DNA of 64,000 bases from Bacillota bacterium. Lineage in GTDB: Bacteria > Bacillota > Clostridia > Christensenellales > CAG-917. The stretch is from the NCBI GenBank assembly GCA_023665365.1, contig JAMPEA010000003.1, forward strand, positions 26,321 to 90,320, in the 5' to 3' direction. Of the stretch, positions 2,900 to 59,870 are shown one piece after another (position 1 is the stretch's first letter; the number at the start of each line of letters is the position of its first letter). The notes beneath the pieces were generated by a model that saw nothing but the letters and a program-made list of their open reading frames with translations, was not told the origin of the DNA and did no database searches. The position numbers were made by a program, and so were the translations under genes.

Positions 2900-2925
2900 A
2901 ACACAAATCGAGGATTGAGAGGGTT

Positions 2926-3789: not shown

Positions 3790-3804
3790 ACTTTTATTTG
3801 AAAT

Positions 3805-7709: not shown

Positions 7710-7732
7710 GTTTTAATTGTCTATATAAGAAA

Positions 7733-9465: not shown

Positions 9466-9494
9466 TTGAATATATAAAATATATTTGTTATAAT
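9466..9494 (+). promoter_or_regulatory. Candidate SigA promoter of hpf
   Basis: TTGAAT at 9466-9471, a 17-nt spacer, then TATAAT at 9489-9494. It lies 30 nt upstream of the hpf ATG. Confidence 0.5.
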
Positions 9495-9524
9495 ATAATA
9501 AACTAAAAGCGAGGAGGTCCGTTT

Positions 9525-9857
9525 ATGAAACTCGAAATTTACGGAAAGAACTACAACCCGAGCGATTTGCTCAAAGCCGTCACCGAAAAGAAATCCGCTA
9601 AGCTCGCAAGACGTTTGAAGGACGACGACAATGCGCAGGTCAAATACACCGTTACGCTTGAAAACGGTGTGTACGCCACCGACCTTACGGTTGTTACTCG
9701 CGGGCAATCTTATCGAGCCGAGGCTGAGTCCGGTTCGCCGTTCGACAATATCGACGTGGTTATTCCGAGGCTGCTCGGGCAGATGAGAAAGCAAAAAGAC
9801 ATCAAGTGCAGAGGCAAAAAAGGGTCGCCGAGCGTTTACGCCGACCACGAGGAATGA
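9525..9857 (+). CDS. hpf: Ribosome hibernation promoting factor / RaiA family, short form
   Basis: 110 aa, MKLEIYGKNYNPSDLLKAVTEKKSAKLARRL...YRAEAESGSPFDNIDVVIPRLLGQMRKQK, which fits the sigma54-modulation/HPF fold. There is a GAGGAGG RBS. No long C-terminal dimerisation domain is present. Confidence 0.85.
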   Translation: MKLEIYGKNYNPSDLLKAVTEKKSAKLARRLKDDDNAQVKYTVTLENGVYATDLTVVTRGQSYRAEAESGSPFDNIDVVIPRLLGQMRKQKDIKCRGKKGSPSVYADHEE

Positions 9858-10645
9858 TGAGAGTCGGCATCTCGACAGCTACATTTTTTTTAAAGGAATT
9901 GACCGAGGATTCGTTCTCGGTCATTCAACGCTGTGGAGGCGAGACCTGCGAGGTGTTTTTGACGACGTATTCGGAGTATGAGCCCGAGTTTGTCGATACT
10001 TTAAAGGCAAAAAAGGGCGACCTTGACGTATATTCCGTCCATTCGCTCAATACGCAGTTCGAGCCGCAGCTTTTCAATCTCGCGCCGCGCACGCGCGCCG
10101 ACGCGGAAAAGTTATTCCGCAAAGTGCTTGCGGCAGGCATGACGCTCGGAGCGAGGGTGTATACTTTCCACGGGCTTTCGAGGTTGAAGAAAAACACCTA
10201 TTTCGACCCCGTTACGGTCGGGAAGCGCATGCGCGAGCTCGGCGAAATCGCAAACGAATACGGCATTACGCTATGCCTTGAAAACGTGCACTGGGCGACG
10301 TTCAACGCTCCGAGCTTTTATGCGGAGATGAAAAAATATTCGCCCAACTGCGGGTGCGTGCTCGACGTGAAGCAGGCGTGGCAGTCGGGCTACGACTGGC
10401 GCGAATATCTCGACGTCATGGGCGATACGCTCAAAAACGTGCACCTCAGCGACGTGGACAAGGACGGCAATATCGCTATGGTGGGCAAGGGCGCGTTCCC
10501 CTTCGAGGAGCTTATAAAACGCCTTGACGGGATAGGCTACGACGGTCCGCTTATGATAGAGCAGTATGCAAAAAATTACGACGGCTACGACGAGGTGGCG
10601 CAGTCTGTAAAATATTTGAAAAACATTGTCGGAGGACTAAGATGA
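9854..10645 (+). CDS. Sugar phosphate isomerase/epimerase (xylose isomerase-like TIM barrel)
   Basis: The track ORF starts at 9806, but the in-frame ATG at 9854 overlaps the hpf stop (ATGATGA) and gives MMRVGISTATFF. Motifs of the AP-endonuclease-2/TIM-barrel family are present (YTFHG, LCLENV, IEQY). Confidence 0.8.
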   Translation: MMRVGISTATFFLKELTEDSFSVIQRCGGETCEVFLTTYSEYEPEFVDTLKAKKGDLDVYSVHSLNTQFEPQLFNLAPRTRADAEKLFRKVLAAGMTLGARVYTFHGLSRLKKNTYFDPVTVGKRMRELGEIANEYGITLCLENVHWATFNAPSFYAEMKKYSPNCGCVLDVKQAWQSGYDWREYLDVMGDTLKNVHLSDVDKDGNIAMVGKGAFPFEELIKRLDGIGYDGPLMIEQYAKNYDGYDEVAQSVKYLKNIVGGLR

Positions 10646-14368: not shown

Positions 14369-14947
14369 ATGTACAGTTATATTTCGGGCAAAATTGTAGG
14401 CAAGACTGCAAGCGGAATAGTTGTCGAAAACAACGGAATAGGCTATGATATAGGCGTGAGCGGCAACACGCTTTACGACGTGGATTTGGGCGAGATTGTA
14501 AAAATCTACACCTATTTATACGTGCGCGAGGACGAAATGTCGCTATACGGCTTCTCCCGCGAGGAGGAGAAAAAGCTGTTTTTGCGTCTCATCGACATAA
14601 GCGGGATAGGTCCTAAGATGGCGATGCAGATACTCGGCGGCTACGACCTCAAAACGCTTACCGTCGCTATTGCAAGCGGCGACGTCAAGACGCTTTGCAA
14701 GATAAAGGGACTCGGCAAAAAGACGGCGGAGCTTATCGTGCTCAATCTGCGCGAGGTCGCGGCGGAGGATATAAGCGGCGCGGATGACGGCGTAGGCATA
14801 GCGGGCGACGATATAGCGGACGCGGTGAACGCGCTCGAATCGCTCGGCATTGCAAAAACCGACGCTGTACGCGCGGTCAGCGAAGCGCAAAAATCCGTCA
14901 GCGGAGTTGAAAATATCATTGCATACTGCTTAAAACAGTTGCTTTAA
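14369..14947 (+). CDS. ruvA: Holliday junction branch migration complex subunit RuvA
   Basis: 192 aa. MYSYISGKIV...GIGYDI gives the OB domain, and HhH motifs are present (ISGIGPKMA, IKGLGKKTAE). Confidence 0.93.
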   Translation: MYSYISGKIVGKTASGIVVENNGIGYDIGVSGNTLYDVDLGEIVKIYTYLYVREDEMSLYGFSREEEKKLFLRLIDISGIGPKMAMQILGGYDLKTLTVAIASGDVKTLCKIKGLGKKTAELIVLNLREVAAEDISGADDGVGIAGDDIADAVNALESLGIAKTDAVRAVSEAQKSVSGVENIIAYCLKQLL

Positions 14948-29130: not shown

Positions 29131-30423
29131 ATGCGAGAAATAAAAAGGGACTATTATCTTAATCAACTGATAAGTAGGCGTGAAAATGGCGCGGTCAAAA
29201 TCGTAACAGGCGTGCGTAGATGCGGTAAAAGTTATTTGCTGTTTGAGTTGTTTCGCAATTATTTATATCAAAACGGAGTTGATGAAAAACATATCATTGC
29301 TCTTTCGCTCGATGAAGAGAAGAATAGGATATACAGGAATCCCGAGAAACTTAACGCGTATATAGATTCGCAGATAGCGAGTGACAAAGAGCAGTACTAC
29401 GTTTTATTGGATGAAGTTCAGTTTGCTATCGACGACGATGAAATCAGGGGGAAGAGTGCGCCGATTAGGTTGTATGGGGTTCTCAACGGTTTGTTGAGAA
29501 AACGGAACGTTGACATATATATCACAGGGAGCAATTCGAAATTTTTATCATCGGACGTGATGACTGAGTTCCGTGGACGTGGCGATGAAGTGAGGCTTAT
29601 GCCATTGTCATTTGCGGAGTTTATGTCTGTATACGATGGGGATAAACAGGACGGCTATGACGAGTATTCGTTGTATGGCGGATTGCCTTTTGTTTTAACT
29701 AAAAAGACCGATGCCGAAAAAGCGCGCTATTTGCGCGATTTGTTTAAATCAACTTATACTCGGGATGTCGTTGAGCGTTATAAACTAAGAGGAAACAATA
29801 TTTTAGAAAACCTCGTCGATGTGTTGGCTTCCGATATCGGGACATTGACTAATCCGAACAAATTGGCAAATACATTTGTGTCAAACGGTATAAAAACAAA
29901 CGAAAGGACAATAGCATCGTATATAGAATATTTGGAGGATGCATTTATAATAACTAAGGCACAACGATACGATATAAAGGGAAAGAGATATATCGGTTCA
30001 CCGATGAAATATTATTTTTCGGATATGGGTTTACGAAATGCAAGATTAAATTTCAGACAGGTTGAGCCGACGCATTTAATGGAAAATATCATTTATAATG
30101 AACTGCTGGTGCGTGGATATAGTGTTGATGTCGGTATTGTTGAATCGTATAAAACGGACGCTAACAGTCAGAGGGTACTTGTAAGAAATGAGGTGGATTT
30201 CGTTTGTAATATGGGAAGCAAGCGATACTATATCCAATCGGCGTTTTCTATTCCCACCAAAGAAAAAATGCAACAGGAAGAGGCTTCTCTTAATAGGATT
30301 TCCGATTCTTTCAAGAAAATATTGGTTGTACAGGACAGAACAAAGCCATGGTATAACGATAACGGCTATCTTATTATCAACTTATTTGATTTTTTGCTCA
30401 ATCCAAATAGCATGGAAATATAG
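29131..30423 (+). CDS. AAA ATPase, AAA_14 + DUF4143 family
   Basis: 430 aa with Walker A GVRRCGKSYLL, Walker B YVLLDEVQ and the C-terminal module NEVDFVCNMGSKRYYIQSA. The gene is AT-rich relative to flanking hemZ and rpsO. Confidence 0.8.
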   Translation: MREIKRDYYLNQLISRRENGAVKIVTGVRRCGKSYLLFELFRNYLYQNGVDEKHIIALSLDEEKNRIYRNPEKLNAYIDSQIASDKEQYYVLLDEVQFAIDDDEIRGKSAPIRLYGVLNGLLRKRNVDIYITGSNSKFLSSDVMTEFRGRGDEVRLMPLSFAEFMSVYDGDKQDGYDEYSLYGGLPFVLTKKTDAEKARYLRDLFKSTYTRDVVERYKLRGNNILENLVDVLASDIGTLTNPNKLANTFVSNGIKTNERTIASYIEYLEDAFIITKAQRYDIKGKRYIGSPMKYYFSDMGLRNARLNFRQVEPTHLMENIIYNELLVRGYSVDVGIVESYKTDANSQRVLVRNEVDFVCNMGSKRYYIQSAFSIPTKEKMQQEEASLNRISDSFKKILVVQDRTKPWYNDNGYLIINLFDFLLNPNSMEI

Positions 30424-33511: not shown

Positions 33512-34063
33512 TCATACTTGCTTGTTAGGCTCTGCAATATTTTCAACAGAGATAATAGGCTCAGCAGGGCGAAGCGTTTTTGCGTTTTCATAATTGTCAA
33601 GCGCATACATAACAGCAGTTTTAATACTTTTAAAGTTTGTTACGCCGTTCCACCTGTGTCCGATAATTCCATATACGCTGTTAGATATTACAATAGTGCC
33701 ATATTTGAATATCCTTTGCCAAATGGTTTGTATGCATCTCACCACCTGAATTTTGTTAAGCGGAATGTCTAAGTATCTATGAGTCAAAAATCCGCAAAAG
33801 TATATTATGCGTTTGTTTGTCACAACGAAAGTGCGAGATAGATATGTAGCTGTATATATACCGCATACAACAAAAAGGATAAATATAACTAAAACCACAA
33901 TTAACCATCCAATGTCGTCGATAACGGTGGCGGCACTTACAGCGATTAGGATAATCGTTATTAACGCCGTTACTGCCCAAAGGATGATTATCGGGATTTT
34001 GGTGAAGGTCATTTCTTTCAAGATTTTTTCATCATCGTATAGAATATCGCTGATATGTTGCAA
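33512..34063 (-). CDS. Membrane protein with bacterial PH domain (bPH_2, YdbS/YdbT-like)
   Basis: 183 aa with a TTG start preceded by GGAGAA. Two TM helices are followed by FVVTNKRIIYFCGFLTHRYLDIPLNKIQ...GTIVI, typical of bPH_2. The gene is AT-rich. Confidence 0.7.
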   Translation of the reverse strand: MQHISDILYDDEKILKEMTFTKIPIIILWAVTALITIILIAVSAATVIDDIGWLIVVLVIFILFVVCGIYTATYLSRTFVVTNKRIIYFCGFLTHRYLDIPLNKIQVVRCIQTIWQRIFKYGTIVISNSVYGIIGHRWNGVTNFKSIKTAVMYALDNYENAKTLRPAEPIISVENIAEPNKQV

Positions 34064-34174: not shown

Positions 34175-34387
34175 ATGTATAGAAGAATAAGAGATTTACG
34201 CGAGGATTGCGACCTAAATCAGACAGCCGTTGCCAAAATGCTCGGAATGTCGCAAACCGGATATTCGAAGTACGAAACGGGGGAGAACGACGTGCCTACC
34301 GCGGTTTTGATAAAGCTCGCGGATTTTTACGGTACAAGCGTAGATTATCTTTTAGGGCTTACAAACAATCCCAAGCGAAATATTTAG
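34175..34387 (+). CDS. XRE-family HTH transcriptional regulator (70 aa)
   Basis: The in-frame ATG at 34175 gives MYRRIRDLREDCDLNQTAVAKMLGMSQTGYSKYETGENDVPTAVLIKLADFYGTSVDYLLGL, a classic HTH_3. It is divergent from the bPH gene and lies 80 nt upstream of the RF-like operon. Confidence 0.8.
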   Translation: MYRRIRDLREDCDLNQTAVAKMLGMSQTGYSKYETGENDVPTAVLIKLADFYGTSVDYLLGLTNNPKRNI

Positions 34388-34432: not shown

Positions 34433-34461
34433 ATGACTTTTTAATTATATAGTGGTATACT
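34433..34461 (+). promoter_or_regulatory. Candidate extended -10 promoter placing the TSS at or next to the RF-like ATG (leaderless)
   Basis: ATGACT at 34433-34438, a 17-nt spacer, TG at 34453-34454, and TATACT at 34456-34461. The ATG at 34468 is only 6 nt downstream, and no Shine-Dalgarno sequence is present. Confidence 0.4.
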
Positions 34462-34467
34462 AATTTT

Positions 34468-35475
34468 ATGTACGGTATTTACGGCGATATAATCGTGGCG
34501 GCGGAGAGGGCGCTTGAATGCTTCGAGGAGACGGAAGAACTCTTGGAATATCCCGAAGTACAGGCGGACAAAGCGTATTATTTGTCCGTCTTGTCAAAGT
34601 ATAACGGACTTAAAGTTTTAAAGGACAATCTGACGGCGTTAAAGGCGGCTCTTGACGACGAGAAGGCGACGCTCGCACTGCTTGCCGACGCAAGTTCGGA
34701 TAAGGAGCGCGACGCGGTGTATGCCGAATTGACGGCTTTGAAGAGGAGCGCGTCCGAATTATCCGCGTCGCTGTCCGACGCGCTTGGGTGCAGACACGCG
34801 GAAGAACGCGCGTACCTCCGAATGAGATTTAAAGAGGTCTCGTCGAAGTTCGGGACTGAATTGTTTGCGCTTATAAAGGCGGATATGTCGTCGCGCGGCG
34901 TGAAGATTTTAAGCGAAAATGCCGTTTCATCGAAAGACGGATACGTGCAAGAGATTTCCTGCATATTCGAGGGCGTTGACGTAATCGCGCGGCTAAGTCC
35001 GCTTTCGGGAGCGCACAAGGTGTATATAGCCAAGGCGCAATCCGAGGAGATTTGCTTTGCGGTTACGCCGTCCGCTAAGGCGGAAGCGGTGTCTGAAAAC
35101 GATTTGAAAATAGACGTTTTCCATTCGAGCGGAGCGGGCGGACAAAACGTAAATAAGGTGGAAACGGCGGTGCGCGTCACGCATATTCCCACGGGACTTA
35201 GCGTGGTTTGTCAGGACGAGCGTTCGCAGTTGAAAAACAAGAGGCGCGCTTTGGAAACTATTGAAAAGCGACTCAACGAGATGAACGAGCAGGCTGAGAA
35301 AAGCCGCATAGAAGCCGACGTGCGCGCGCAGTTCGCGCATAAGAATACTCCGTTGTCGTTCGATTCGGCGCGGCGCACTTTGACGGATACGAGGCTCAAA
35401 GCGTTTTCGCAAATTCCGTTTCCGCTAACAAACGAGCAGTTCACCTCGTATTTAAACGGACTTATGGCGTTATGA
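34468..35475 (+). CDS. Class-I peptide chain release factor paralogue (RF1-like, GGQ intact, codon-recognition loop missing)
   Basis: 335 aa. The N-terminal helical domain is RF1-like (ELLEYPEV...). Domain 3 reads [43 protein letters not shown]. The region equivalent to the RF1 PxT loop is shortened ([22 protein letters not shown]). Confidence 0.8.
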   Translation: [335 protein letters not shown]

Positions 35476-37859
35476 ACAGGATTACGGTTGACACAAAAAA
35501 GATAGCTTTATCTTCAAACCGAAGCGTTTATAAGACGGAGGGCTTCATCAATCAGACGCGCAAAGTGCTGGCAATCGACGCGTTTATTTCGCGTATAGCG
35601 GAGGGCGTATTCGGCGCGAATATCGAGCTTTCTTACGGCTGTCATACGGCGCAAACCGCAGACGGGCTTTATACGCTGTTTTTATGCCGCAGGCGCGCGG
35701 ACGAGAGACTTGGCGAGGGCGATATAGTCTTTTACAAATTTCTAAGCGCAAACCCGTCGGACGGAGGCACTGACAGGCGACTCGGCGACTATATTTTGAA
35801 CAACGACCAAATCGAAGTCGTTCTCAAAGGCGTGTCCGACGACGCAGTGACCGACGAGGACCTCACAAGGCTTTATCTCGTATCGGGTTCGGACGGCATA
35901 GTAAACTTTCCCTATCTCAACGAGACGCAACGCAGGATTGTTGAGACAGAGGACGCAAATATGCTCGTGCAAGGCATCGCGGGCAGCGGCAAGACCAACG
36001 TTTGCATAGAAAAAATCGTATATTGCGCCTGTCGAAATTATCGCGGCACTGTGCTGTATACGACCTTTTCACGAGGGCTGCTCAGCGAGACTCGCAATCG
36101 CGTGGAGTTATTTTCGAGAAATATCGACGGCTTTATCTCAGCATACGAGGGCGGGAACGTGGTGTTCCTCGACGAAAACCACAAAAAAGCGGTCGAAAAC
36201 AAGTTGGGGATTTTATTTTCCGTGGACGAGGACTGCGAAATAATCTCCGCACTCAAACGCATTTCGACGTTTTTGAAAGAAAAAGTGGAGTATCGCCTTA
36301 TCGAGGATATATACGCCGAGCTATTCCCAAAGAAGCGAGTCGCGGGCGAAAGCGTATTTTTAAATCAGTATCTCGGCGCGGGCAAAAACTACAAGCTGTC
36401 CGGCGCGCTCGACAGAATAAAGCACATTGCGCCCGAAATCATATACAAAGAGATTTACGGAATGATTTTCGGCAAGTACGAGCTTGAAACCCCGCAAGAT
36501 ATGATGGGACGGGACGAGTACGCCGAGGCGAGGAGCGACAGCTTTACGCGGCGCGAGTGCGACGTAATATACTCGGTTGCGACGGACTACGCGGAGTTTT
36601 TAAGGAAGCGCGATTACACGGATAACAACCTTATGAGCCGCGAGATTTTGAATACCGTTACGTCGCCGAAGTATTCCGTCGGCGTCATCGACGAGGCGCA
36701 GGATTTCACGCAAGTCAACCTTTGTCTTATGAAAAAACTTTGCAGAAAGCTATTCTGTGTAGGCGACGCGTTGCAGATGATAAATCCGTCCTATTTCAAT
36801 TTCGGATATTTGAAGCGCATTATGTACGGCGACGTCACAGGCGTAAACGAATTGCGCCACAACTATCGCAGTACTCAGACGATAGAGAAAATCGCGGAAA
36901 AGCTCGGCGAGATGAATATGCAACGCTTCGGCACGCACAGCTTTGTATTGAAAGGCGAAAGCGTTCCGTCGCCTCTTCCGTCGGCGGCGGTGCTGGTCAA
37001 GGATAGAAGTTTTGCGCAATCGCTGAGCGACAGGAGATTTGAAAACGTCACGGTGGTCGTATCCTCGCAACAGAAAAAGGAGAAGTTGCGCAAGGTCCTC
37101 GGCAAGACCGAAATTCTAACGGTAGCCGAGGCAAAGGGTTTGGAGCGAAACACAGTCATACTCGCCGACGTGCTGAGCGACAATGCGGATAAGTGGAAAT
37201 ATCTGCACAATATGTCCCTCAACAGAAAGACTGCCGACGAGAACTCGGTTTTCAGATACTACTTCAATCTGTTTTACGTGGGCATATCGCGCGCAAAGCA
37301 GTATCTGTTCGTTGCCGAGTCTGACTATCCTGAGTTTTTCAATCCGCTATTCAACGAGTGTTTCGAGCGCATGAGCAAGGACGACGCGCTTGCGTACTTA
37401 AAAGATATTGTCGGCAGTTTGGAGATTGACGACGACGAGTTCATCGAGCGTATTGAAAAATTCTGCTCGCTCGAACAGTACGACAACGCGCGCAACACCG
37501 CCGACAGGCTGTCGTCCGAGGAACTGCGTAAAAAACAGCTTGTATATATATCCGTGCACGAAAAATATCTGCGCTACGGCAGGACGCGCGACGCAGGCGT
37601 AGAGTATTGGCGGCAGGGCATGGACGCAGAAGCAAGGGAAATGTTCACTCTCTCGGGCGACCAAAAGCTGTTTCCGCTTATGGACGCGTGCAAGCAGGGC
37701 GGCGGAGCGCTCGACCCCGAAATCGTCAAATTTTATCCGCTCGTCGAGGATAACGACGTTGCGAAGAGGATAATAATAGATACGCTAAACAGAGACAGCG
37801 GCGAAATCGCGGCAAATTTGAAAACCGCAAACGCAAGTCTTAGGAGGAAAAAACAATGA
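35472..37859 (+). CDS. UvrD/PcrA-like superfamily-1 helicase with unassigned N- and C-terminal domains
   Basis: 795 aa with SF1 motifs LNETQRRIV, GIAGSGKTN, VIDEAQDF, CVGDALQMI, NYRST, AEAKGLERNTVIL and YVGISRAKQYLFV. The start overlaps the RF-like stop (ATGA). Confidence 0.85.
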   Translation: MNRITVDTKKIALSSNRSVYKTEGFINQTRKVLAIDAFISRIAEGVFGANIELSYGCHTAQTADGLYTLFLCRRRADERLGEGDIVFYKFLSANPSDGGTDRRLGDYILNNDQIEVVLKGVSDDAVTDEDLTRLYLVSGSDGIVNFPYLNETQRRIVETEDANMLVQGIAGSGKTNVCIEKIVYCACRNYRGTVLYTTFSRGLLSETRNRVELFSRNIDGFISAYEGGNVVFLDENHKKAVENKLGILFSVDEDCEIISALKRISTFLKEKVEYRLIEDIYAELFPKKRVAGESVFLNQYLGAGKNYKLSGALDRIKHIAPEIIYKEIYGMIFGKYELETPQDMMGRDEYAEARSDSFTRRECDVIYSVATDYAEFLRKRDYTDNNLMSREILNTVTSPKYSVGVIDEAQDFTQVNLCLMKKLCRKLFCVGDALQMINPSYFNFGYLKRIMYGDVTGVNELRHNYRSTQTIEKIAEKLGEMNMQRFGTHSFVLKGESVPSPLPSAAVLVKDRSFAQSLSDRRFENVTVVVSSQQKKEKLRKVLGKTEILTVAEAKGLERNTVILADVLSDNADKWKYLHNMSLNRKTADENSVFRYYFNLFYVGISRAKQYLFVAESDYPEFFNPLFNECFERMSKDDALAYLKDIVGSLEIDDDEFIERIEKFCSLEQYDNARNTADRLSSEELRKKQLVYISVHEKYLRYGRTRDAGVEYWRQGMDAEAREMFTLSGDQKLFPLMDACKQGGGALDPEIVKFYPLVEDNDVAKRIIIDTLNRDSGEIAANLKTANASLRRKKQ

Positions 37860-38581
37860 GCGAAATGAACGAAAATTCGATTAAGGAGCTTATAGACAGC
37901 TTTATCGCGTACCGCAACTTGATTGCGCCCTTGCAGGACAGTTTGAACTCTGTCGGCAAGGCGTACGAGGAGATCAGAAGCGACCTCGACAACCTCGCAA
38001 AGAGCTTTTCGGGCAATGCGGCGAGTCAGCTTGAAAAGGTGCATGCCACGCTCAATGCGCAGGCGAAAAGCGGACAGGAGCTTACAAGACGCATAGAGGA
38101 GTATGCCGCGTCGGGCGAGAAGTACGCGCAGTCGGTTGAAAAAATGTCGTCGAGTTTCGCAGAGGTCGTCAACAGGATAGATTCGCTAAGCGAAATCGAA
38201 AAGAGCGCGCAGGCACAGCTTGCGAGGATAGACGCGCTCATCGCTGACAAACGCTCGTCGTACAACCTCAAAGAACTGCAAAAATCGCTTGACGGCTACA
38301 ACGTGAACGTCGAAAAAATCAGCGCGTTTATCAACAAGGATATAGCGTCCGTTTTGAAGCAGAACGCCGATAAAATCGAGGCAATTCGCAAGGAAAATCA
38401 AGAGCTGTCCGCGGCGGTCGCCGAGCAGGGCAAGGACATAGCTACGCTCATTGCGGAGTTTTCCGCTACGTCCGCGCTCCTCAAAAAGCTGGTCGAGGGC
38501 AGTACGGTCAACGAGGAGTATCTCTTTGACGCGTTCGACAAATGGGCGGCGGACAGAAAGGTGAAAATTAAGAAAAAATAA
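37856..38581 (+). CDS. Coiled-coil protein of unknown function
   Basis: 241 aa, almost entirely helical with heptad-like character (Ala/Glu/Lys/Ser/Leu-rich), no TM helix and no catalytic motif. The start overlaps the helicase stop (ATGA). Confidence 0.6.
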   Translation: MSEMNENSIKELIDSFIAYRNLIAPLQDSLNSVGKAYEEIRSDLDNLAKSFSGNAASQLEKVHATLNAQAKSGQELTRRIEEYAASGEKYAQSVEKMSSSFAEVVNRIDSLSEIEKSAQAQLARIDALIADKRSSYNLKELQKSLDGYNVNVEKISAFINKDIASVLKQNADKIEAIRKENQELSAAVAEQGKDIATLIAEFSATSALLKKLVEGSTVNEEYLFDAFDKWAADRKVKIKKK

Positions 38582-38773
38582 CCGTCTTTCATACGCTAAG
38601 GCGCGTAAAAAATAGTCTTTGCGGTGCTTTTTCGCCTTATGTCACTTGATATAGCGCTGCTATACCGGCAATCCATAAGACAAAAAATCGCGCGCAAATC
38701 CTTACTTTTAACCCACCGGCGCATGTAATCCGATTATAAATAGAACAAAATAGTTAGCAACTTATATAAGATT

Positions 38774-40900
38774 ATGGCAACGATAGAATTCGAGTTATTT
38801 AAAGCCGTCAAAAAGGACGATATAAAGGCGTTTGAAGGCTTGATGGAAAGGGCTCAGTGCGGCGCGTACCGACTGGGCAGATTTCCCGTGCTGTCGCTTT
38901 TGTATCTTTATAAGTCGCGCAAAATACTTGCCGAATACGAGGAGAATTTTTTGAAAATCTCCGCCTACGAGGAGCTGCGCGAGCCAATCGAGGTGTCGAA
39001 CAGGTTTTCAAAAAAGGCGGGCAAGTGTCTTAGGCTTTATCTCGACGAGGTAGTATCTCCGCTTGAAATGCTCCTCATTTTGGATAGGACTACGCATTTG
39101 AAGCGCGTGTTCCCAATAGCAAAGCCGTCGTCGGCAATCAGAGGCAGACTGAAAGCTATATATTCCATAAAGTACGCGCTCGGGGTGAGGTTCGCAGGGG
39201 ATGGCATATCGCTCGACAGACGACCGCTAAGCTATCGTGAAAAGAAAAAGTTGTCCACGATATGTATAAGCGCGATTTTGATTATAGCGATTGCAATCGG
39301 CGTACCCGTGACCACCGTCTCGCTTTTGCCGAAGTCTGAGGAAGGCATAGTAAAGACGTTCGAAGATATAAAATTCGGCGAAGATACGCAGTTTACGTTG
39401 AAAAACGACGTGCGCGTGCCCGAGCACTTCGTCGCCGAAAAGATGAACTGCTCGATTGCAGGCAACGGCAAAAAACTCGTTTTAGGCAAGGGCGCGTCGC
39501 TCGGAGAACTCAACGGCACGCTGTCCGATATGACGATAGAAAGCGCGGGCAACCCGATATTCACGTCGTTGACCGTTGCCGCAGAGATAAAAAATGTGAC
39601 GATAAACGTCACCGCCGATGTCACGACGACGGACAGCAGTGCGTTCGTTGCGCTGACAAACTACGGCTTAATTGACGGCGTAACCGTCAATATCAGCGGC
39701 AGTATCAACGCGCTTGCAAAGGCGGATAACGTCGATAACGAAAACCCTGCGGAGCTCGCGTTCGGCGGAATCGTGCAACATAATCACTATAAATACAACA
39801 ATCTCACTGGACAGATTTACAGGAGAGGCGCTGTCACCGATTGCACGGTGAATTACTCCGACTTTACGCTAAGCGGCGAGTCTGCGGCAAACGCGACGTT
39901 CGGCGGAGTAGTCGGACTAAACGATGGATATTTGGAGGATTGCACCGTAAACGGCGAAATAATCGCAGATACCTTTGACTTGGCGGGATTATGCGCTACT
40001 AATAATTTTGGCGTGGTGAATAACGTAAACAACGCAAATCTCGCGCAGACCTCGGCGGGCGAGTGGTATCCCAACACTGCGGGAATAGTCTTAAACAACG
40101 CGTATGGCGTGGAAAACTGCACGAATAACGGCAACGTCTCGGCAATCTCGACCTATGAAATAAGCGGCGAAAACACGGATGAACTCGACACCCGCGACGC
40201 AATAGTTGCAGGAATTGCCTGCATAAATACAAGTCAGATAAGCAAATGCACAAACTTAGGCAACGTCACCGCAAAGGCAAAGGGCATAGCGTACGGCGGA
40301 GGAATATCCGCGCGGTCGTATTCGCGCATAGCGTACTGCTCGTCAAGCGGAAATATCTCGGCAGACGCGCGGACGGTGTACGCAGGCGGAATAATCGCAA
40401 ATAGCGAAGTGACTACTTCCGGACCGTACGTGTACTTCGGCACTGCGGAGTATTGCATAAGCGATGCGACGATAAGCGCTATCGCGCTCGACGACGCGTA
40501 CGTGGGAGGCATTGCGGGTTGCCTCAACGAGCGAGCGTTTACGCAACAGTCCTACGACGAAAACAGAAATCCCGTAGAAACCACCGTTTATTTCGGCGGC
40601 GGTGTGACGAACTGCTATTTTATAGGAGAAAGCGCGTTTGCGGATTTCGGCGCAATCGTAGGCGTGTGCGGCGCAAACATTTACAAAACCAATTCGTACA
40701 GTTCCACTTCGGGCGAGAATTATAAAAATTTGAACGAAAACTTCTATCTGAATAAATTTTCAAAAGCAATCGGGGCGATAGTGAATTCGGACGGCGAATT
40801 TGCCACTGCCGCAGATAAGGGCGCGACCGCGGCAAGCCTCGAATATATCCAAAATTCCGAATATTACAAAGCCATTTTGAGTGAGCTTGCAAGCGATTAG
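38774..40900 (+). CDS. Single-pass membrane protein with extracytoplasmic GLUG-motif repeat (beta-helix-like) domain
   Basis: 708 aa. About 160 aa form an N-terminal helical cytoplasmic domain, followed by a TM helix (LSTICISAILIIAIAIGVPVTTVSLL). At least 8 GLUG-like repeats follow (FGGVVGLNDGYLEDCTVNGEI, AGIVLNNAYGVENCTNNGNVS, VAGIACINTSQISKCTNLGNVTA, YVGGIAGCLNE...). Confidence 0.7.
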   Translation: MATIEFELFKAVKKDDIKAFEGLMERAQCGAYRLGRFPVLSLLYLYKSRKILAEYEENFLKISAYEELREPIEVSNRFSKKAGKCLRLYLDEVVSPLEMLLILDRTTHLKRVFPIAKPSSAIRGRLKAIYSIKYALGVRFAGDGISLDRRPLSYREKKKLSTICISAILIIAIAIGVPVTTVSLLPKSEEGIVKTFEDIKFGEDTQFTLKNDVRVPEHFVAEKMNCSIAGNGKKLVLGKGASLGELNGTLSDMTIESAGNPIFTSLTVAAEIKNVTINVTADVTTTDSSAFVALTNYGLIDGVTVNISGSINALAKADNVDNENPAELAFGGIVQHNHYKYNNLTGQIYRRGAVTDCTVNYSDFTLSGESAANATFGGVVGLNDGYLEDCTVNGEIIADTFDLAGLCATNNFGVVNNVNNANLAQTSAGEWYPNTAGIVLNNAYGVENCTNNGNVSAISTYEISGENTDELDTRDAIVAGIACINTSQISKCTNLGNVTAKAKGIAYGGGISARSYSRIAYCSSSGNISADARTVYAGGIIANSEVTTSGPYVYFGTAEYCISDATISAIALDDAYVGGIAGCLNERAFTQQSYDENRNPVETTVYFGGGVTNCYFIGESAFADFGAIVGVCGANIYKTNSYSSTSGENYKNLNENFYLNKFSKAIGAIVNSDGEFATAADKGATAASLEYIQNSEYYKAILSELASD
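40874..40895 (+). repeat. Direct repeat A, copy 1 (3' end of the GLUG gene)
   Basis: ATTTTGAGTGAGCTTGCAAGCG, identical to 42881-42902. With the three preceding bases, 24/25 positions match. Confidence 0.9.
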
Positions 40901-40969: not shown

Positions 40970-41058
40970 ATAGAAAAGTATAAATTTTTAAAGTAAATTT
41001 TATTAGAAAAGTGTATTTTTACTATAATTAGTTAATAGTAAAAGTGTTGAGGTGATTG

Positions 41059-42402
41059 ATGCTATATCGTAAAATAGAAAGTTATATAGAAAATTTTTTG
41101 CAGTCGGAAACCAACAAGGTGCTTGTTGTAGACGGAGCGCGGCAGATTGGCAAAACGTATATAATCAGACATGTTGGGAAAAAGTTATTTTCAAACTTTA
41201 TAGAAATAAATCTTCTTCAAGATTATTTGAGCGATAAGCTATTTGCAAATACAAAAACCGTCGATGATTTTTATTTGCAGATGAGTATGATTGCAGGAGA
41301 TAGGATGAAAGACAAAGAAAACACTTTGATTTTCCTTGATGAAATTCAGGCATATCCTCATCTTTTGACGCTTTTGAAATTTTTAAAACAGGATGACAAG
41401 TTCACTTATATATCAAGCGGTTCTTTACTGGGCGTTACGCTTTCAAAGACGACTTCGATACCTATCGGAAGCATTGAAGTTAAACATATGTTCCCTTTGG
41501 ATTTTGAGGAATTTCTTATTGCAAACGGATTTAGCGCGTTTGCGATACAAGGTCTTTATAACAAGTTTGTAAATTTGCAAAGTTTGGATGAGCCTATTCA
41601 TGCAAAACTTATGGATTTATTCAAGAAATATCTTTTAGTAGGCGGCTTGCCTGATGCGGTAAATTCATATTTGGCAGATAAAAACATTGTGAACGTCAGA
41701 ACTATTCAAAACGAAATTCACGAGTATTATGCAATGGATGCCTCTAAATACGACAGCTCGAATAGACTGAAAATACGTAGAATTTACGATATGATTCCGT
41801 CAACTTTGGAAAATAAAAAGAAGCGAATCGTAGTACAGAATATCGAAGAAAAGAAGGGCAAACGTTACTGCGATTATAGAGATGAGTTTGATTATCTTAT
41901 AAATTCCGGAATTGCGCTTGACGTGAATGCAATTTCCACACCTGTTTTTCCTTTGATTGAATCAAGCGGAAAAAATCTTTTGAAATTATATCTTAACGAC
42001 GTAGGAATTTTGACAAATATTCTATATCATCATAACGTGCGAGCGATATTAGACGACCAAAGAAGTATCAATCTTGGCACGGTTTATGAATCCGTTGTGG
42101 CTTCCGAATTAAAGGCACACGGTTTTAAACTTTTCTATTATGATAACAAAGCGAAAGGAGAGGTTGATTATTTGATTGACGATTATGACGAACTATCGGT
42201 CGTTCCAATCGAGGTAAAGTCCGGAAAAGATTACACGGTTCACAGCGCGTTAAATCACTTTATGAAAACTGACGAATATAAAATTAAGAAAGCATACGTT
42301 TTATCCAACGAGAGACAAATCATGGTCAAAAACAAAATTATATATATGCCCATCTATTTCGTAATGTTTTTCGGCTGGGAAAACGTTAATGCGCAGCAGT
42401 AG
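41059..42402 (+). CDS. AAA ATPase, AAA_14 + DUF4143 family with PD-(D/E)xK-like C-terminal motif
   Basis: The ATG at 41059 follows GAGGTG, whereas the track starts one codon earlier at TTG. Walker A is GARQIGKTYII and Walker B is LIFLDEIQ. The C-terminus reads GEVDYLIDD...VPIEVKSGKDY. The gene is strongly AT-rich. Confidence 0.8.
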   Translation: MLYRKIESYIENFLQSETNKVLVVDGARQIGKTYIIRHVGKKLFSNFIEINLLQDYLSDKLFANTKTVDDFYLQMSMIAGDRMKDKENTLIFLDEIQAYPHLLTLLKFLKQDDKFTYISSGSLLGVTLSKTTSIPIGSIEVKHMFPLDFEEFLIANGFSAFAIQGLYNKFVNLQSLDEPIHAKLMDLFKKYLLVGGLPDAVNSYLADKNIVNVRTIQNEIHEYYAMDASKYDSSNRLKIRRIYDMIPSTLENKKKRIVVQNIEEKKGKRYCDYRDEFDYLINSGIALDVNAISTPVFPLIESSGKNLLKLYLNDVGILTNILYHHNVRAILDDQRSINLGTVYESVVASELKAHGFKLFYYDNKAKGEVDYLIDDYDELSVVPIEVKSGKDYTVHSALNHFMKTDEYKIKKAYVLSNERQIMVKNKIIYMPIYFVMFFGWENVNAQQ

Positions 42403-42410
42403 AGCGATAG

Positions 42411-42854
42411 TCAGTCGAAATCAATTCTGCCGAGCACGAAATCAATAGAGCAATCAAGAGCTTTTGCAAGTTTTATGACGTTATCCATTGTGGGCTTGTT
42501 TTTCCCTTTTTGCCAATAATACATTGTGGATTTTGAGATCTCGGTCAATTTTTGCAACTTATATCTGCTTATTTTAAAACGGTCTAATAAGTATAAGAAC
42601 TGTTTGCTAAACGGCGGGTACTCGTGATATGTTTTATCTTTATAGTTATCCTCAAATCCCAGCAAATAGTCCACGGAACAATCGAAATAATCCGCTATTT
42701 TTACGGCGACCTCAATGTCGGGTGTTTGTTTTTCCAATAAATATCTGGAAATAGTAGAACTTCCCAATCCTAACTTTTCCGAAAGCTCGGACTGCTTTAA
42801 ATCATTCTCAATCAATAGTTCTTTTAGCGTATAAACAAAATTCGATAAATACAT
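42411..42854 (-). CDS. XRE-family regulator with two tandem HTH_3 domains
   Basis: 147 aa. HTH 1 is LKQSELSEKLGLGSSTISRYLLEKQTPDIEVAVKIADYFDCSVDYLLG. HTH 2 is ISRYKLQKLTEISKSTMYYWQKGKNKPTMDNVIKLAKALDCSIDFVLG. It is convergent with the ATPase gene. Confidence 0.8.
   Translation of the reverse strand: MYLSNFVYTLKELLIENDLKQSELSEKLGLGSSTISRYLLEKQTPDIEVAVKIADYFDCSVDYLLGFEDNYKDKTYHEYPPFSKQFLYLLDRFKISRYKLQKLTEISKSTMYYWQKGKNKPTMDNVIKLAKALDCSIDFVLGRIDFD
42413..42434 (+). repeat. Direct repeat B, copy 2 (covers the last codons of the dual-HTH XRE gene)
   Basis: AGTCGAAATCAATTCTGCCGAG encodes ...GRIDFD on the minus strand. Confidence 0.9.
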
Positions 42855-53113: not shown

Positions 53114-55036
53114 ATGAGCTATTTTATAGTATTGTTATTTGTTTTGTTAGTCGGCGTGGATTTGGCGTATCTGTTTAAACGCGGGTTTGGACAGACTGCC
53201 GCGCTTACGAATTTCATCTTGATTTTTATGCTGTATCTCGGCGGACTGTTTTTAAATCTGAGGATTGCGGCATACGTGTTTTTGATATGCGCGGTTCTGC
53301 TTACGGGGTTCGTAGGGTACAAGGTTGTGCGCAACAAGGACTTGGACGGAATTAGAACGGTTGTGATAAACCCTGCGTTTTACATATACGCGATTATCGG
53401 ATTTGCGTTGGGCTTTATCTTTTTGAGATACGAGACTTCTTTCACGGACGAGTTTTCGCATTGGGCGTTGGTTTCCAAAAATATGTTTTTGCACGACAAC
53501 TTCGGCAATGTCGGCGACGTGACTACAATGTTCAACCAGTACGTTCCCGCGACGGGGATATTTATGTACGCGTTTCAGATTTTCGGCAGCGAGTTTTCAA
53601 ACGGAGCGCTATACAGTGCGTTTAATCTGCTGTTATTGTCCCTGCTTTTGCCGATTATCGAAAGATTTGACAAGAAAGTCACTTGGGTTGCGATTTTATT
53701 TACCGTTTTGACGCTTGCGCTTCCCGTCGCGTTTAAGGCAAGCGTGTATATGACGCTTATGGTTGACCCGCTGCTTGCGATACTTTGCGCATACATATAT
53801 CTTTCATACTCGCTCGACAAGGGCAGGTCGGACGGCTTTACGATTATAAATATCTCGCTTGCGTGCCTTGTGATTACACTTACAAAATCGTCGGGCTTGG
53901 CGTTTGGGATTTTCGGCATTATATTTATCTTCATCGACGCGCTTACTCGCGGGAGAGAGGGACTTAAAACTTTCTTCTCAAACAAAATAAATTTCGCGCT
54001 TGTGCTTTTGCCCGTCGTGCTTATTGCGTTTGCAAAGCTGTCTTGGTCGTGGTATGTGGATTTTTACAACGTGCGCGCCGGTTGGGAAACGGGCGAGATG
54101 ACCCTTGCAAATATCTTGGAATGGATTAAAAATGCCAATCCTTATCAAAGCGCGGTCACGGCAAGGTTTTTCAAAAACTTCTTCGTAGGGAGCATAAAAT
54201 ACGACGGCGGATTGCAACTGCCTCAAATTTTGGTGCTTGCGGTTATCGCGGGTATAAACGTTTTATTTGGTTTCCGTACCAAAAATAAGGCGTTTGCCAT
54301 TACGCAAGGCGTGGTCATGTACGTTATGGTCATCGGCTATGGACTTGTGCTGTTGCTGATGTATCTGTTCAGCTTTTCGTACAGGGAAGGGCTTGCGCTT
54401 GCGTCCTATCCGCGATACAACATATCAATGATGCTTTCTATCGTGCTCGTATTCCTCTATCAGTTTGCTGAGCTGTACGGCGTAGGGTGGAGCGAAAAAG
54501 ACCACGGATGCAACAATCGAGAAACCCGCAAGAGATTGGTTAAACTCACTCACGCTAAATTCGTATCCGTCGCGGCGGTGCTGGCGGTGGCGTTTATTAT
54601 CGGCGGATTGGTGTACGACCAAAGCAAGCTCACAAGCCCCTATGACGTTTGGCGCGAGACGCTTGCTACGCTAAACCCGTCCGAGGATAGCGTTTATATC
54701 GTTGTCACCGACGAGGACGTCGAAGCGCAGTCGCAGGTATATATCCGTATGCGCTTTTACGCCACGCCGTTGCAGGCTTCGGGTTACTTGGAGGGCGGCT
54801 CGTACGCTGAGGGCAGAGACGCCCAAGTTTGTTGGACTGGCAATCCGTTTTCTATGAAATTATCCGTGGATGAGCTGGCGCAGGAAATGTCAAGCTATAC
54901 GCACGTCTATCTGCACGACGTGTGGGCGGAGTTCGAGGACAAGTACGGCGAACTGTTTGCAAGCCCTATCGAGGACGATACGCTGTACGAAATCACCTAC
55001 GACGGCGGAAATCTAAAACTCGTAAAAGCGCAATAG
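53114..55036 (+). CDS. Polytopic membrane protein (about 12+ TM) with C-terminal soluble domain; possible GT-C-type glycosyltransferase
   Basis: 640 aa with many hydrophobic helices. An acidic loop motif (FTDEFSHW) follows the early TM helices, as in GT-C enzymes. The functional call is weak. Confidence 0.55.
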   Translation: MSYFIVLLFVLLVGVDLAYLFKRGFGQTAALTNFILIFMLYLGGLFLNLRIAAYVFLICAVLLTGFVGYKVVRNKDLDGIRTVVINPAFYIYAIIGFALGFIFLRYETSFTDEFSHWALVSKNMFLHDNFGNVGDVTTMFNQYVPATGIFMYAFQIFGSEFSNGALYSAFNLLLLSLLLPIIERFDKKVTWVAILFTVLTLALPVAFKASVYMTLMVDPLLAILCAYIYLSYSLDKGRSDGFTIINISLACLVITLTKSSGLAFGIFGIIFIFIDALTRGREGLKTFFSNKINFALVLLPVVLIAFAKLSWSWYVDFYNVRAGWETGEMTLANILEWIKNANPYQSAVTARFFKNFFVGSIKYDGGLQLPQILVLAVIAGINVLFGFRTKNKAFAITQGVVMYVMVIGYGLVLLLMYLFSFSYREGLALASYPRYNISMMLSIVLVFLYQFAELYGVGWSEKDHGCNNRETRKRLVKLTHAKFVSVAAVLAVAFIIGGLVYDQSKLTSPYDVWRETLATLNPSEDSVYIVVTDEDVEAQSQVYIRMRFYATPLQASGYLEGGSYAEGRDAQVCWTGNPFSMKLSVDELAQEMSSYTHVYLHDVWAEFEDKYGELFASPIEDDTLYEITYDGGNLKLVKAQ

Positions 55037-57966: not shown

Positions 57967-59286
57967 GTGAAAAAATCGAAGAGAATTTTGATATTATTTA
58001 CGCTGATTTTGCTTGTAACGACGCTGATATTGCTATGCGCCTGCGGCGACAAAGACAGTAATAAAGTGACTTTGCAATACTTCGCGTCGTCAAACGGACA
58101 TATTGACGGGGAAGCGAAGCAGATTGTCGAGCGTAATTCAAGCGGAAGTACGGTCACGGCAGTCGCGGACAGTGGTTATATGTTTGACAAGTGGTCGGAC
58201 GGGGTACTTAGCGCCGAGCGCACCGATACAGACGTTGTTGAAGATAAAAATATAATTGCGCAATTTAAAAAAGTTGAAACGTATTTCGACGTTACTCTAA
58301 ATTACGACCGAAACGATTTTGATATTTATGATAACGTTTCCGAGATGCGAATTGTAAACGGCGGTAAAATCGAATTGCCTACTCCTACACGTTTAGGATA
58401 TGAGTTTAATGGTTGGCAAGATGATGATGAAAATCGTTATGACGGCGGTGAAAAAATCGAAATCACAAAAGATATTACTTTTACGGCAAGTTGGGAGATA
58501 ATCGAGTATACGATAACTTATCATCTCAATGGTGGAACTTTGGAAAATCCTAAAACTAAGTTTACAATAAATGATCTCCCGTTTACTTTACCAATGCCCG
58601 AAGCGCAGGACGATAACTATGGTTTTGACAAATGGACAACCGACGAACAGGGTAAAAACGTTGTGCTTGACGATTATTTGTACGCCGAATACTTGAAAGA
58701 TCTAACGTTATATGCCCATTATGCGGAAAGTTTAGAGCTTATGTCTTTTGATTATGCCGATAGTAACCACGATTCGTTAGTACTAAGTGGGGTGAGTAAC
58801 GCAAGGTGTGTGGTAATTCCCGATACATTTAACGGCTTGCCCGTAGAACATATAGGTAGAAAGGCTTTTTTCAATCACACTAACTTGACAAGCGTTACGA
58901 TACCGAATACTGTGTATTATATTAAAGATGAGGCGTTTTACGGTTGTGTAAGCCTCACGAGTATTCATATTCCCGAAATCCTAATTTGTGGTGACAATGC
59001 TTTTTATAATTGTTGTAGCCTGTCTACCGTGTACGTTGACTCGTTGGACATTGCAAATAGAGTGAGTCATCATCTATTCGACAGTGCAAAGGATGTGTAT
59101 ATTCTTGATACGATAGAGATTTACGAGGGAATTTATCCAAATCCATCAATGGAGCAATGGGATGTTGGACAAAGTTACGACTTATTTACAAACTCATTTG
59201 AAAAGCAAGCTGAGCCGGTTATTGTAAACGGACAATCGTATAACCATTACGTTCGCAAGAACGTCGAGGAAGAAAATCAAAATTAA
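57967..59286 (+). CDS. Surface lipoprotein with Listeria-Bacteroides (InlB B-type) repeats and BspA-type leucine-rich repeats
   Basis: A GTG start lies 7 nt after GGAGGA. The signal peptide and lipobox are LILLCAC. Three repeats are present (GYMFDKWSDG, GYEFNGWQDD, YGFDKWTTDE). The LRR_5-like segment reads IPDTFNGLPVEHIGRKAFFNHTNLTSVTIPNTVYYIKDEAFYGCVSLTSIHIP. The gene is AT-rich. Confidence 0.75.
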   Translation: MKKSKRILILFTLILLVTTLILLCACGDKDSNKVTLQYFASSNGHIDGEAKQIVERNSSGSTVTAVADSGYMFDKWSDGVLSAERTDTDVVEDKNIIAQFKKVETYFDVTLNYDRNDFDIYDNVSEMRIVNGGKIELPTPTRLGYEFNGWQDDDENRYDGGEKIEITKDITFTASWEIIEYTITYHLNGGTLENPKTKFTINDLPFTLPMPEAQDDNYGFDKWTTDEQGKNVVLDDYLYAEYLKDLTLYAHYAESLELMSFDYADSNHDSLVLSGVSNARCVVIPDTFNGLPVEHIGRKAFFNHTNLTSVTIPNTVYYIKDEAFYGCVSLTSIHIPEILICGDNAFYNCCSLSTVYVDSLDIANRVSHHLFDSAKDVYILDTIEIYEGIYPNPSMEQWDVGQSYDLFTNSFEKQAEPVIVNGQSYNHYVRKNVEEENQN

Positions 59287-59310
59287 AAATAAATATACAA
59301 GGAGATTATT

Positions 59311-59601
59311 ATGGATCCAAGAAAAGTAGTTTCGCCGAAGGGCAAAGTGAGCAATTTACAGGTCATTTACGTAGACAAAGAGGGTGGATATTCGATTGCC
59401 ACGCTCGATTGGGAGAACGTAAAGAGGGTTGCAATCCGTTGGAACGGAGCAAACGAAAACAGCAAAGGCTATCCGCACTCGTTCGGTCGTCCGACGTGGT
59501 TTATCATGCCAAAGCAAATAGCGCTTGCGTTTGCTATGCACACCAACAATTTGGAAATGGTGCAAAGTATAAAAGCCTGCGACGACTCTGCATTTTGCTG
59601 A
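59311..59601 (+). CDS. Hypothetical 96-aa protein
   Basis: The ORF has a GGAGA RBS and lies 24 nt after the LRR lipoprotein gene. It has no TM helix and no motif I can assign (…IRWNGANENSKGYPHSFGRPTWFIMP…). Confidence 0.45.
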   Translation: MDPRKVVSPKGKVSNLQVIYVDKEGGYSIATLDWENVKRVAIRWNGANENSKGYPHSFGRPTWFIMPKQIALAFAMHTNNLEMVQSIKACDDSAFC

Positions 59602-59654
59602 TAAGGCGGATTGATTGAAATCAGCGCGGCTTTTGCCGATATAAAAAGTTTACA

Positions 59655-59685
59655 ATGCACCCGCCGATAAAGCGGGTGCATTTGT
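59655..59685 (+). terminator. Hairpin terminator after the 96-aa ORF
   Basis: ATGCACCCGC-CGATAAA-GCGGGTGCAT followed by TTGTATT. Confidence 0.6.
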
Positions 59686-59870
59686 ATTCGCCTATAATTT
59701 AGTAAATTATCGCAAGCAGTGCATAATTATAAGAAAAATTAGCTTGACAGATAGATATTTATACATTACACTTGTAACAATATAAATTTATATATACTAT
59801 TTTAAACAAAACATATTTTTATAGATTTGGTGTCGGGCGTCCGACGCAATTTTTATAAGAGGAGGCAGGT

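Follow-up and report, generated by a model that had tools for sequence, protein, structure and literature searches.

What would a class-I release factor (RF) that can no longer read stop codons do in one operon with a UvrD-like helicase? This question is raised by a stretch of 64,000 nucleotides (nt) from a Bacillota bacterium of the Christensenellales (GenBank assembly GCA_023665365.1, contig JAMPEA010000003.1, positions 26,321 to 90,320; the whole stretch is hereafter called the window). An original prediction, made from the letters alone, had recognised in it three tightly coupled genes, coding for a degenerate RF1 paralogue, a superfamily 1 (SF1) helicase and a coiled-coil protein, and had proposed them as a candidate undescribed system. 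The follow-up described here reveals a real, conserved and apparently undescribed system, of which the conserved unit is four genes, g1 to g4. These genes, their two overlaps and the predicted promoter are located as follows, lengths being in amino acids (aa).

34433..34461, + strand: operon promoter (predicted), with -35 ATGACT (34433-34438), a 17-nt spacer with a TGn extension, and -10 TATACT (34456-34461)
34468..35475, + strand: g1, RF1 paralogue, 335 aa, matched by Pfam RF-1 and PCRF
35472..35475, + strand: g1/g2 ATGA stop/start overlap, a 4-nt overlap being present in 42/50 orthologous loci
35472..37859, + strand: g2, SF1A (UvrD/PcrA/Rep-like) helicase, 795 aa, matched by Pfam UvrD-helicase and UvrD_C
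37856..37859, + strand: g2/g3 ATGA stop/start overlap, a 4-nt overlap being present in 41/49 orthologous loci
37856..38581, + strand: g3, coiled-coil protein, 241 aa, with sub-threshold matches of coiled-coil type
38774..40900, + strand: g4, bitopic membrane protein, 708 aa, with ankyrin-like, transmembrane and GLUG-type beta-helix parts, assigned from its conserved position and a structural model

The locus under study is that of the 64-kb window, and orthologues were counted in about 50 loci from 48 species-level genomes. The three open reading frames (ORFs) first described lie on the + strand exactly where they had been placed, as do both ATGA overlaps, and the recurrence of these overlaps at most of the orthologous junctions indicates that they are not due to chance. 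The helicase alignment, scanned against a single genome for each GTDB species, recovered 48 species, which all bear one of the labels uncultured Clostridia, Clostridiales or 'Christensenella sp.', and the order g1-g2-g3-g4 is kept in every locus that extends far enough. The three genes of the original prediction are therefore co-conserved, but the trio is not the complete unit: the 'GLUG gene', which had been left outside it, is g4 and stands downstream of g3 in 45 of the 45 loci long enough to contain it. The spacing between g3 and g4 is usually 3-27 nt, whereas the window has a spacer of 192 nt (38582-38773), and its g4 has no Shine-Dalgarno (SD) sequence in front.

In the same line, homologues of g1 fall into more than 120 clusters (62-73% identity, all of about 335 aa) from metagenome-assembled genomes (MAGs) of uncultured Clostridia. 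Three long contigs carry the same four genes (for an RF-like protein, a helicase, and proteins of about 238 aa and of 764-797 aa) in three unrelated contexts, the fourth protein having no Pfam match on any of them, and the adjacency is confirmed by the locus tags of NCBI MAGs, in which, for example, K2O08_01715 is g1 and K2O08_01730 is g4. Identity to the window proteins amounts to 63-83% for g2, 59-87% for g3, 42-73% for g1 and 37-61% for g4.

The identity of g1 is central to the question. The protein has all four RF1 domains, matches RF-1 (2.5e-28) and PCRF (2.8e-6) in Pfam, and appears to be clearly RF1-derived, since its prfA score exceeds its prfB score; the profile of its family finds RF1 structures as best matches in the PDB (about 135 bits). 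Nevertheless, it stays far below the cutoffs of the prfA equivalog TIGR00019 (133.5 bits vs 423) and of NF001859 (130.6 bits vs 400). The catalytic GGQ motif is intact (residues 224-226, nt 35137-35145) and, together with 22 residues of the GGQ domain, invariant over 50 orthologues; this domain is 48% identical to that of canonical RF1, while the remaining domains reach 16-21%.

The loss of the codon-reading loop, also claimed by the original prediction, is borne out by alignment to RF1 structures, which leaves gaps at the positions of GTGGDEA (tip of alpha5) and PxT..GRIHTS, and by comparison with a canonical RF1 of the same clade: in both cases the PxT/GRxHTS loop, the 7-residue core of the reading loop, is deleted in g1. 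Compared to that canonical RF1, encoded at locus L010, g1 also lacks AGxGGEE (tip of alpha5) and the switch-loop motif GSGDRSE..RTYNFPQ, and it is about 17 residues shorter at the C-terminus. In g1 and all 50 orthologues the codon-reading elements are deleted or replaced. Within the family, every g1 domain is conserved (mean majority fraction 0.71-0.81), and purifying selection still acts on all of them.

Locus L010 also bears on whether g1 could be the organism's only RF1. There, a canonical prmC-prfA pair is found on the same contig as the g1 orthologue, 5 kb to its upstream side; this prfA scores 508 bits (cutoff 423), carries PET and GRVHTS, and is 29% identical to the g1 orthologue of that locus, which marks g1 as an extra paralogue. 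The genes just upstream of the operon there are prmC-prfA-thrC-trpS (60-4733). In addition, TAG stop codons are in use in these genomes, so that a genuine RF1 is needed elsewhere in the genome; no other RF homologue is present within the 64-kb window. To judge from these comparisons, g1 is, in agreement with the original prediction, an extra, degenerate RF1 paralogue and not the housekeeping prfA.

The second protein, g2, matches UvrD-helicase (49.8 bits, cutoff 23) and UvrD_C (40.4 bits, cutoff 25.6) in Pfam. The SF1 motifs quoted for it at the outset, among which Walker A GIAGSGKT (residues 168-175, nt 35973-35996), are all confirmed and invariant across 50 orthologues. Structure predictions were run with AlphaFold on homologues of the locus proteins, and the g2 model (predicted local distance difference test, pLDDT, 75; predicted template modelling score, pTM, 0.71) is composed of an alpha/beta N-terminal domain (residues ~1-140), an SF1A core and a helical C-terminal domain (~620-795). 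Foldseek places PcrA/UvrD/Rep on top (template modelling (TM) scores 0.36-0.46, probability 1.0), with HelD, Upf1-like and RecB/AddA helicases further down. At the level of the superfamily, g2 belongs to the SF1A UvrD/PcrA/Rep-like helicases. It is nonetheless below the NCBIfam equivalog cutoffs of UvrD, PcrA, Rep, HelD and helicase IV (20-50 bits vs 419-1144), and its TM-scores against these specific helicases are 0.25-0.46. The N- and C-terminal domains, for which sizes of about 150 and 170 aa had been proposed, still find no match in profile searches of PDB sequences or in family-wide Pfam scans, and the N-terminal one appears to be specific to the family. A 974-aa protein of Shigella dysenteriae plasmid pSLG231 (CP006737.1; L053, 3515-6439) combines an SF1 helicase core with a C-terminal ankyrin repeat. 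As it is only about 25% identical to the g2 core, it was set aside as a 'Rosetta stone' for a link between the helicase and the ankyrin-like g4, for which it gives weak support.

As for the two remaining proteins, g3 is, as first described, almost pure coiled coil: it obtains only generic, sub-threshold coiled-coil matches in Pfam, NCBIfam, PADLOC and the PDB, which assign it to no family, and a PspA-like identity was dropped after no PspA_IM30 match turned up. It is present in every locus and is also recognisable in the distant modules without RF described below (44-81 bits). The model of g4 (pLDDT 90.9) shows N-terminal ankyrin-like helical repeats (residues 1-150), a transmembrane helix (154-176, nt 39233-39301) and a long right-handed beta-helix. 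The N-terminal part is predicted to be cytoplasmic because it precedes a positively charged stretch and the transmembrane helix, and its 160 residues are the best-conserved portion of the conservation profile, while the outer domain varies in length with insertions and deletions (indels). Foldseek matches are weak, namely the beta-helix of IgA1 protease for the outer domain (E 6.6e-3) and DARPin/ankyrin folds for the N-terminal domain (E ~0.6-1, probability 0.5-0.97). Neither the window g4 nor its residues 1-160 alone have a Pfam match; the Glug motif (PF07581) is detected in distant g4-like proteins (39 and 23.6 bits vs cutoff 20.5). The g4 family counts 216 matches, all named 'hypothetical'.

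The order in which these genes came together can be approached through more distant relatives. In a metagenome scan by generic helicase patterns, about 9 of 76 loci were true relatives, and an exhaustive search with the helicase profile separates a first tier of full-length relatives (600-860 bits) from a second tier (260-390 bits) that aligns only from about residue 66-80. An RF-like gene precedes the helicase in the first-tier loci L054 (where it is cut by the contig end), L056, L057, L062, L063, L066/67 and L090. These RF-like genes are RF1-derived (172-197 bits on prfA) and far more diverged than the helicase; they have kept GGQ, lost PxT, and their decoding region is scrambled. The RF-like partner of L066 (6622-7464) carries a low-complexity insert, GSGGTSGTGGKSGTGGKS, at the position of the codon-reading loop, and it lacks the C-terminal part of domain 4, yet retains GSGGQ.

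By contrast, the second-tier loci L055, L058/59 and L060/61 consist of a helicase, a g3-like and a g4-like gene, the g4-like proteins combining the conserved N-terminal domain with Glug or Flg_new repeats. None of them contains an RF gene, the gene upstream in L060 being on the other strand, and the first ~75 residues of g2 are common only to the RF-linked helicases. In two first-tier loci, L064 and L075, a PadR-type regulator occupies the RF position (1736-2335 and 7132-7716, respectively), and in both a gene for an NlpC/P60-type lipoprotein lies divergently upstream. The RF-less module of L058 (7875-10421) and L059 (7475-9679) has a rolling-circle Rep (REP_ORF2-G2P) and a large serine recombinase at a distance of 3-5 kb, which suggests that in that lineage the module may be carried on an integrative element.

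Neighbour-joining trees place the RF-less modules as the outgroup and unite the RF-linked ones in a single clade, within which the PadR pair is nested; the topology of the RF tree follows that of the helicase tree. Since the RF-less modules already carry the helicase, g3 and g4, the RF1 copy would have been captured by an older three-gene module. The simplest reading of these trees and gene contents is that the helicase/coiled-coil/membrane-protein set is the older core, that an RF1 duplicate was captured once, and that co-diversification followed, with one replacement by PadR. The RF-helicase module of the original prediction is thus present, but its RF seems to be a late addition to a set that existed without it. 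This would be a clean evolutionary event, in which the duplicate of an essential translation factor was taken into a pre-existing membrane-anchored helicase module.

Expression signals are conserved along with the genes. In the window, 6 nt separate the end of the -10 from the g1 ATG, and exactly this distance, together with a 17-nt spacer, recurs for a -10 of at least 5/6 matches in 44 of 50 orthologous loci. The -35 is TTGAC(T/A)-like, the TG extension recurs in 42/50 loci, and an SD-like motif ahead of g1 occurs in a single locus out of 50. Such a geometry characterises 40 of 48 g1 genes vs 13 of 488 other genes of the loci, and it predicts a leaderless g1 transcript starting at the A of the AUG. 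The promoter being carried right at the start of g1, the cassette would remain functional in many locations. An SD-like motif is absent upstream of g2 in all loci (0/51), whereas g3 has one in 47/50, the AGGAGG of the window lying inside the end of g2. With an ATGA overlap and no SD of its own, g2 should depend for its translation on ribosomes terminating g1. A riboswitch or other RNA leader ahead of the operon was discarded, no Rfam family matching between 30000 and 43000 at E <=0.1. If the prediction is right, the operon represents a well-conserved case of leaderless expression in Clostridia. Under a generous criterion, leaderless-type geometry was also noticed in the window at 53114-55033 (+), 553-1815 (-) and 14369-14944 (+).

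Do the surroundings of the operon indicate a mobile island? The original prediction had placed it in an accessory stretch. This description is correct for the window, but it is peculiar to it: none of the 48 other genomes shares the window flanks, and the operon has a native composition, its G+C (43-55%) tracking that of the flanks (r = 0.54, p = 3e-4). The 339 flanking proteins fall into 281 clusters, and a common context is limited to close relatives. Elsewhere, the genes next to the operon serve ordinary functions (metabolism, transport, two-component systems), and neither integrases nor defence genes are enriched among the neighbours of the loci. A phage, plasmid or viral origin was also considered and rejected for want of close relatives in the corresponding collections: phage records gave only partial g1 matches (<=38% identity), plasmids only g2 core matches of 25%, and viral contigs nothing. 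The operon looks, from composition and context, like a long-resident chromosomal unit of a clade with little synteny, and not like a recently mobile island.

None of the known systems compared here coincides with this operon. The 2019 survey of RF evolution recognises RF1, RF2, ArfB and PrfH as the bacterial GGQ types and mentions no helicases (PMC6514570), no RF-helicase pairing was found in the literature searched, and PADLOC-DB v2 has no model for g1, only sub-threshold matches for g3 and g4, and no such combination, so that the claim of an undescribed system stands. Compared to canonical RF1, g1 shares the PCRF + RF-1 domain order and the 'PEV..AD' and 'TD.R' motifs; it differs in its shortened C-terminal helix, in not being beside prmC and in its score far below the equivalog cutoff. 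Characterised GGQ proteins that no longer decode function in rescue, and frequently a neighbouring gene supplies a partner, as in PrfH-RtcB (PMC6514570, PMC9304027).

PrfH-RtcB2 resembles the g1 operon in several respects: a paralogue of a class-I RF has kept its GGQ, while its recognition of stop codons is altered or lost; it coexists with canonical RF1/RF2 and shares an operon with an enzyme acting on nucleic acid. However, PrfH has about 200 aa and no domain 1, whereas g1 has 335 aa and all four domains, and g1 remains below the PrfH cutoff (TIGR03072, 84 bits vs 166.65). The partner of PrfH is the RtcB ligase, absent from the ~50 neighbourhoods analysed, instead of an SF1A helicase with a coiled-coil and a membrane protein. 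Finally, PrfH-RtcB is sporadic and spread horizontally, while the present operon looks resident in one clade.

ArfB, ICT1 and mtRF-R likewise have a GGQ domain and do not read stop codons, but they are proteins of ~140-170 aa made of this domain and a tail, whereas in g1 domains 1, 2 and 4 are still present and a basic C-terminal tail is absent. On the ArfB/ICT1 model g1 obtains 40 bits (cutoff 100), only the GGQ segment being matched. The mitochondrial mtRF-R acts with its partner MTRES1 on split large subunits, which offers a possible analogy for g1. ArfB has been reported absent from Firmicutes (PMC6514570).

On the helicase side, g2 shares with GajB of the Gabija system an SF1A UvrD-like ATPase flanked by extra terminal domains, and GajB had been invoked in the original prediction as an instance of UvrD-like helicases in defence. 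The best PADLOC matches of g2 are indeed of GajB type, but partial (50-71 bits), and Gabija relies on GajA, an OLD-family ATPase/TOPRIM nuclease, whereas the partners of g2 are entirely different: g1, g3 and g4 give no GajA match, and no GajA-like neighbour occurs in the window or in the related loci. The analogy fails for this reason, and Gabija or any other catalogued defence system was discarded, g1 having no match at all. In eukaryotes, SF1 or SF2 helicases cooperate with a release factor or with a decoding-dead paralogue, as in Upf1-eRF1/eRF3 and in Ski2/Slh1 with Dom34-Hbs1. These pairs share the logic only: eRF1 and Dom34 are unrelated to bacterial RF1, and a cooperation within the present operon is an analogy.

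To our knowledge, all characterised GGQ proteins (RF1/2, ArfB/ICT1, PrfH, mtRF-R) hydrolyse peptidyl-tRNA on the ribosome. In this context, the function favoured here, although tentatively and with substantial doubt about the scheme as a whole, is peptide release that needs no codon and is directed by a helicase complex tethered to the membrane. The g1 protein would be a codon-independent peptidyl-tRNA hydrolase still able to work at the peptidyl-transferase centre. As it is blind to the codon in the A site, g1 would be targeted and activated by its partners, the helicase being the most likely one. The helicase complex, held at the membrane by g4 through g3, would engage nucleic acid bearing stalled or unwanted translation complexes, and g1 would then free the nascent chain from those ribosomes, or from 50S-peptidyl-tRNA after these have been dislodged. 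A role on ribosomes, in rescue or in conflict as the original prediction had it, is plausible. The data do not settle whether such an activity serves the clearance of ribosomes and transcripts or a conflict, for instance phage defence: long residence, composition and neighbours favour maintenance, while modularity, the fast-evolving ectodomain and the one mobile-element context speak for conflict.

Several points weigh against this scheme. Ribosome binding by g1 and contacts among the four proteins are putative. The helicase has a DNA-type SF1A fold (PcrA/UvrD/Rep) and is no obvious RNA helicase. Moreover, since the core works without an RF elsewhere and PadR can take the RF position, the primary job of the helicase need not concern ribosomes. 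The outward-facing, fast-evolving domain of g4 is hard to fit into pure ribosome rescue, and profile, PDB and Pfam searches bring up no relatives of g3 or of the extra helicase domains.

The same observations must therefore be weighed under other explanations. A possible one, though on the doubtful side, is an anti-phage or conflict system of the abortive-infection type, in which the g4 beta-helix or the helicase would sense an invader and g1 would be unleashed codon-blind, thereby aborting translation. The modular first position (RF, PadR or nothing), the rapid evolution of the g4 ectodomain with its indels and Glug/Flg_new domain swaps, the faster evolution of g1 compared to g2, the varying genomic position, and the rolling-circle Rep and serine recombinase near one RF-less module are all consistent with it, as are the low-GC XRE, bPH and AAA_14/DUF4143 genes flanking the operon in this window and the fact that GajB-type UvrD helicases, at only ~70 bits, are the best PADLOC matches of g2. 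Nevertheless, PADLOC offers no model for g1 and only sub-threshold matches for g3 and g4, and no GajA-like or other nuclease or toxin partner is encoded. Besides, the operon is maintained in 48 species-level genomes at 63-83% helicase identity, its G+C tracks that of the host, it is surrounded by ordinary chromosomal genes that show no excess of integrases or defence functions, phage, plasmid and viral contigs hold no relatives, and close species share flanks, which suggests vertical inheritance. Less probable is a DNA-centred machine, in which g2, as a UvrD/PcrA/HelD-like motor, would remove RNA polymerase or resolve conflicts on DNA that coupled transcription, translation and insertion tether to the membrane, while g1 would just tidy up, freeing the nascent peptides of ribosomes attached to the displaced transcripts. 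The fold closest to PcrA/UvrD/Rep, HelD-RNA polymerase complexes among the Foldseek matches, a weak NCBIfam HelD match, the membrane anchor provided by g4 and a core that works without an RF, which would make the latter accessory, point in this direction; but the HelD score is 32 bits vs a cutoff of 419, arm domains of HelD type are not detected, no polymerase or replication genes are linked, and the variable extracellular domain is left unexplained.

An action of g1 away from ribosomes is more improbable still. The protein could be a structural or regulatory subunit, or an upstream ORF gating the synthesis of the helicase, its GGQ serving another ester substrate or being merely retained. The dependence of g2 translation on that of g1, the low identity to RF1 (16-21%) outside the GGQ domain and the PadR regulator in the same position in one branch could be read in this way; yet no variation is seen across 50 orthologues in the GGQ and 22 residues of its domain, all the distant RF-like partners have retained GGQ, which is unlikely without selection for catalysis, and 335 aa conserved over the full length are more than a gating ORF. 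That g1 would be the divergent housekeeping RF1 of the organism can be dismissed with near certainty: it is the sole RF homologue in the 64-kb window, but its 133 bits fall far short of the prfA cutoff of 423, all its codon-reading elements are deleted or replaced, a genuine prmC-prfA (508 bits) shares a contig with the L010 orthologue, and TAG stop codons are in use.

Codon-blind peptide release at a membrane-tethered helicase complex also admits a bolder and rather unlikely version, namely that a helicase and a class-I RF paralogue incapable of decoding work together, which would make this the first such pathway in bacteria. The SF1 motor, anchored at the membrane, would locate or strip problem translation complexes and the codon-blind RF1 copy would release their chains, as a functional analogue of the helicase-eRF1/Dom34 pairs that arose independently by capture of an RF1 duplicate, the leaderless mRNA making synthesis of the system report the state of translation. 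ArfB and PrfH each revealed a distinct route of ribosome rescue, and g1 is a third type of bacterial GGQ protein without decoding: it is full-length, RF1-derived and devoid of all decoding and switch elements, and its link to a helicase shows in gene order, translational coupling and co-diversification. Should the two cooperate as proposed, they would define a helicase-dependent branch of bacterial translation quality control or of translation-targeting immunity, and g1 would be a natural example of an RF activated by a protein partner instead of a codon. The carriers are common members of mouse, rabbit and other gut communities; as they are uncultured, the proteins need to be studied heterologously.

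Finally, the immediate surroundings in the window have features of their own. Upstream lie rpsO-pnp and, adjoining g1, a gene for a bPH_2 membrane protein (33512-34063, - strand) and a small helix-turn-helix (HTH) gene of the XRE family (34175-34387, + strand), in a stretch of 41-44% G+C; these two neighbours accompany the operon in 0/48 other genomes. Downstream, low-GC AAA_14/DUF4143 and HTH genes precede trkH-trkA. Two paralogous AAA_14/DUF4143 ATPase genes (29131-30423 and 41056-42402; 34-40% G+C vs ~50%) stand on either side of the stretch from rpsO-pnp to the operon, and a double-HTH gene (XRE/CI-like; 42411-42854, - strand) comes after the second. The AAA_14/DUF4143 genes and the double-HTH gene look like separately inserted accessory genes. 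Low-GC patches (32-41% vs ~50%) are also present at 8001-10000, 58001-60000 and 62001-63000, which suggests that the window may hold additional inserted DNA.

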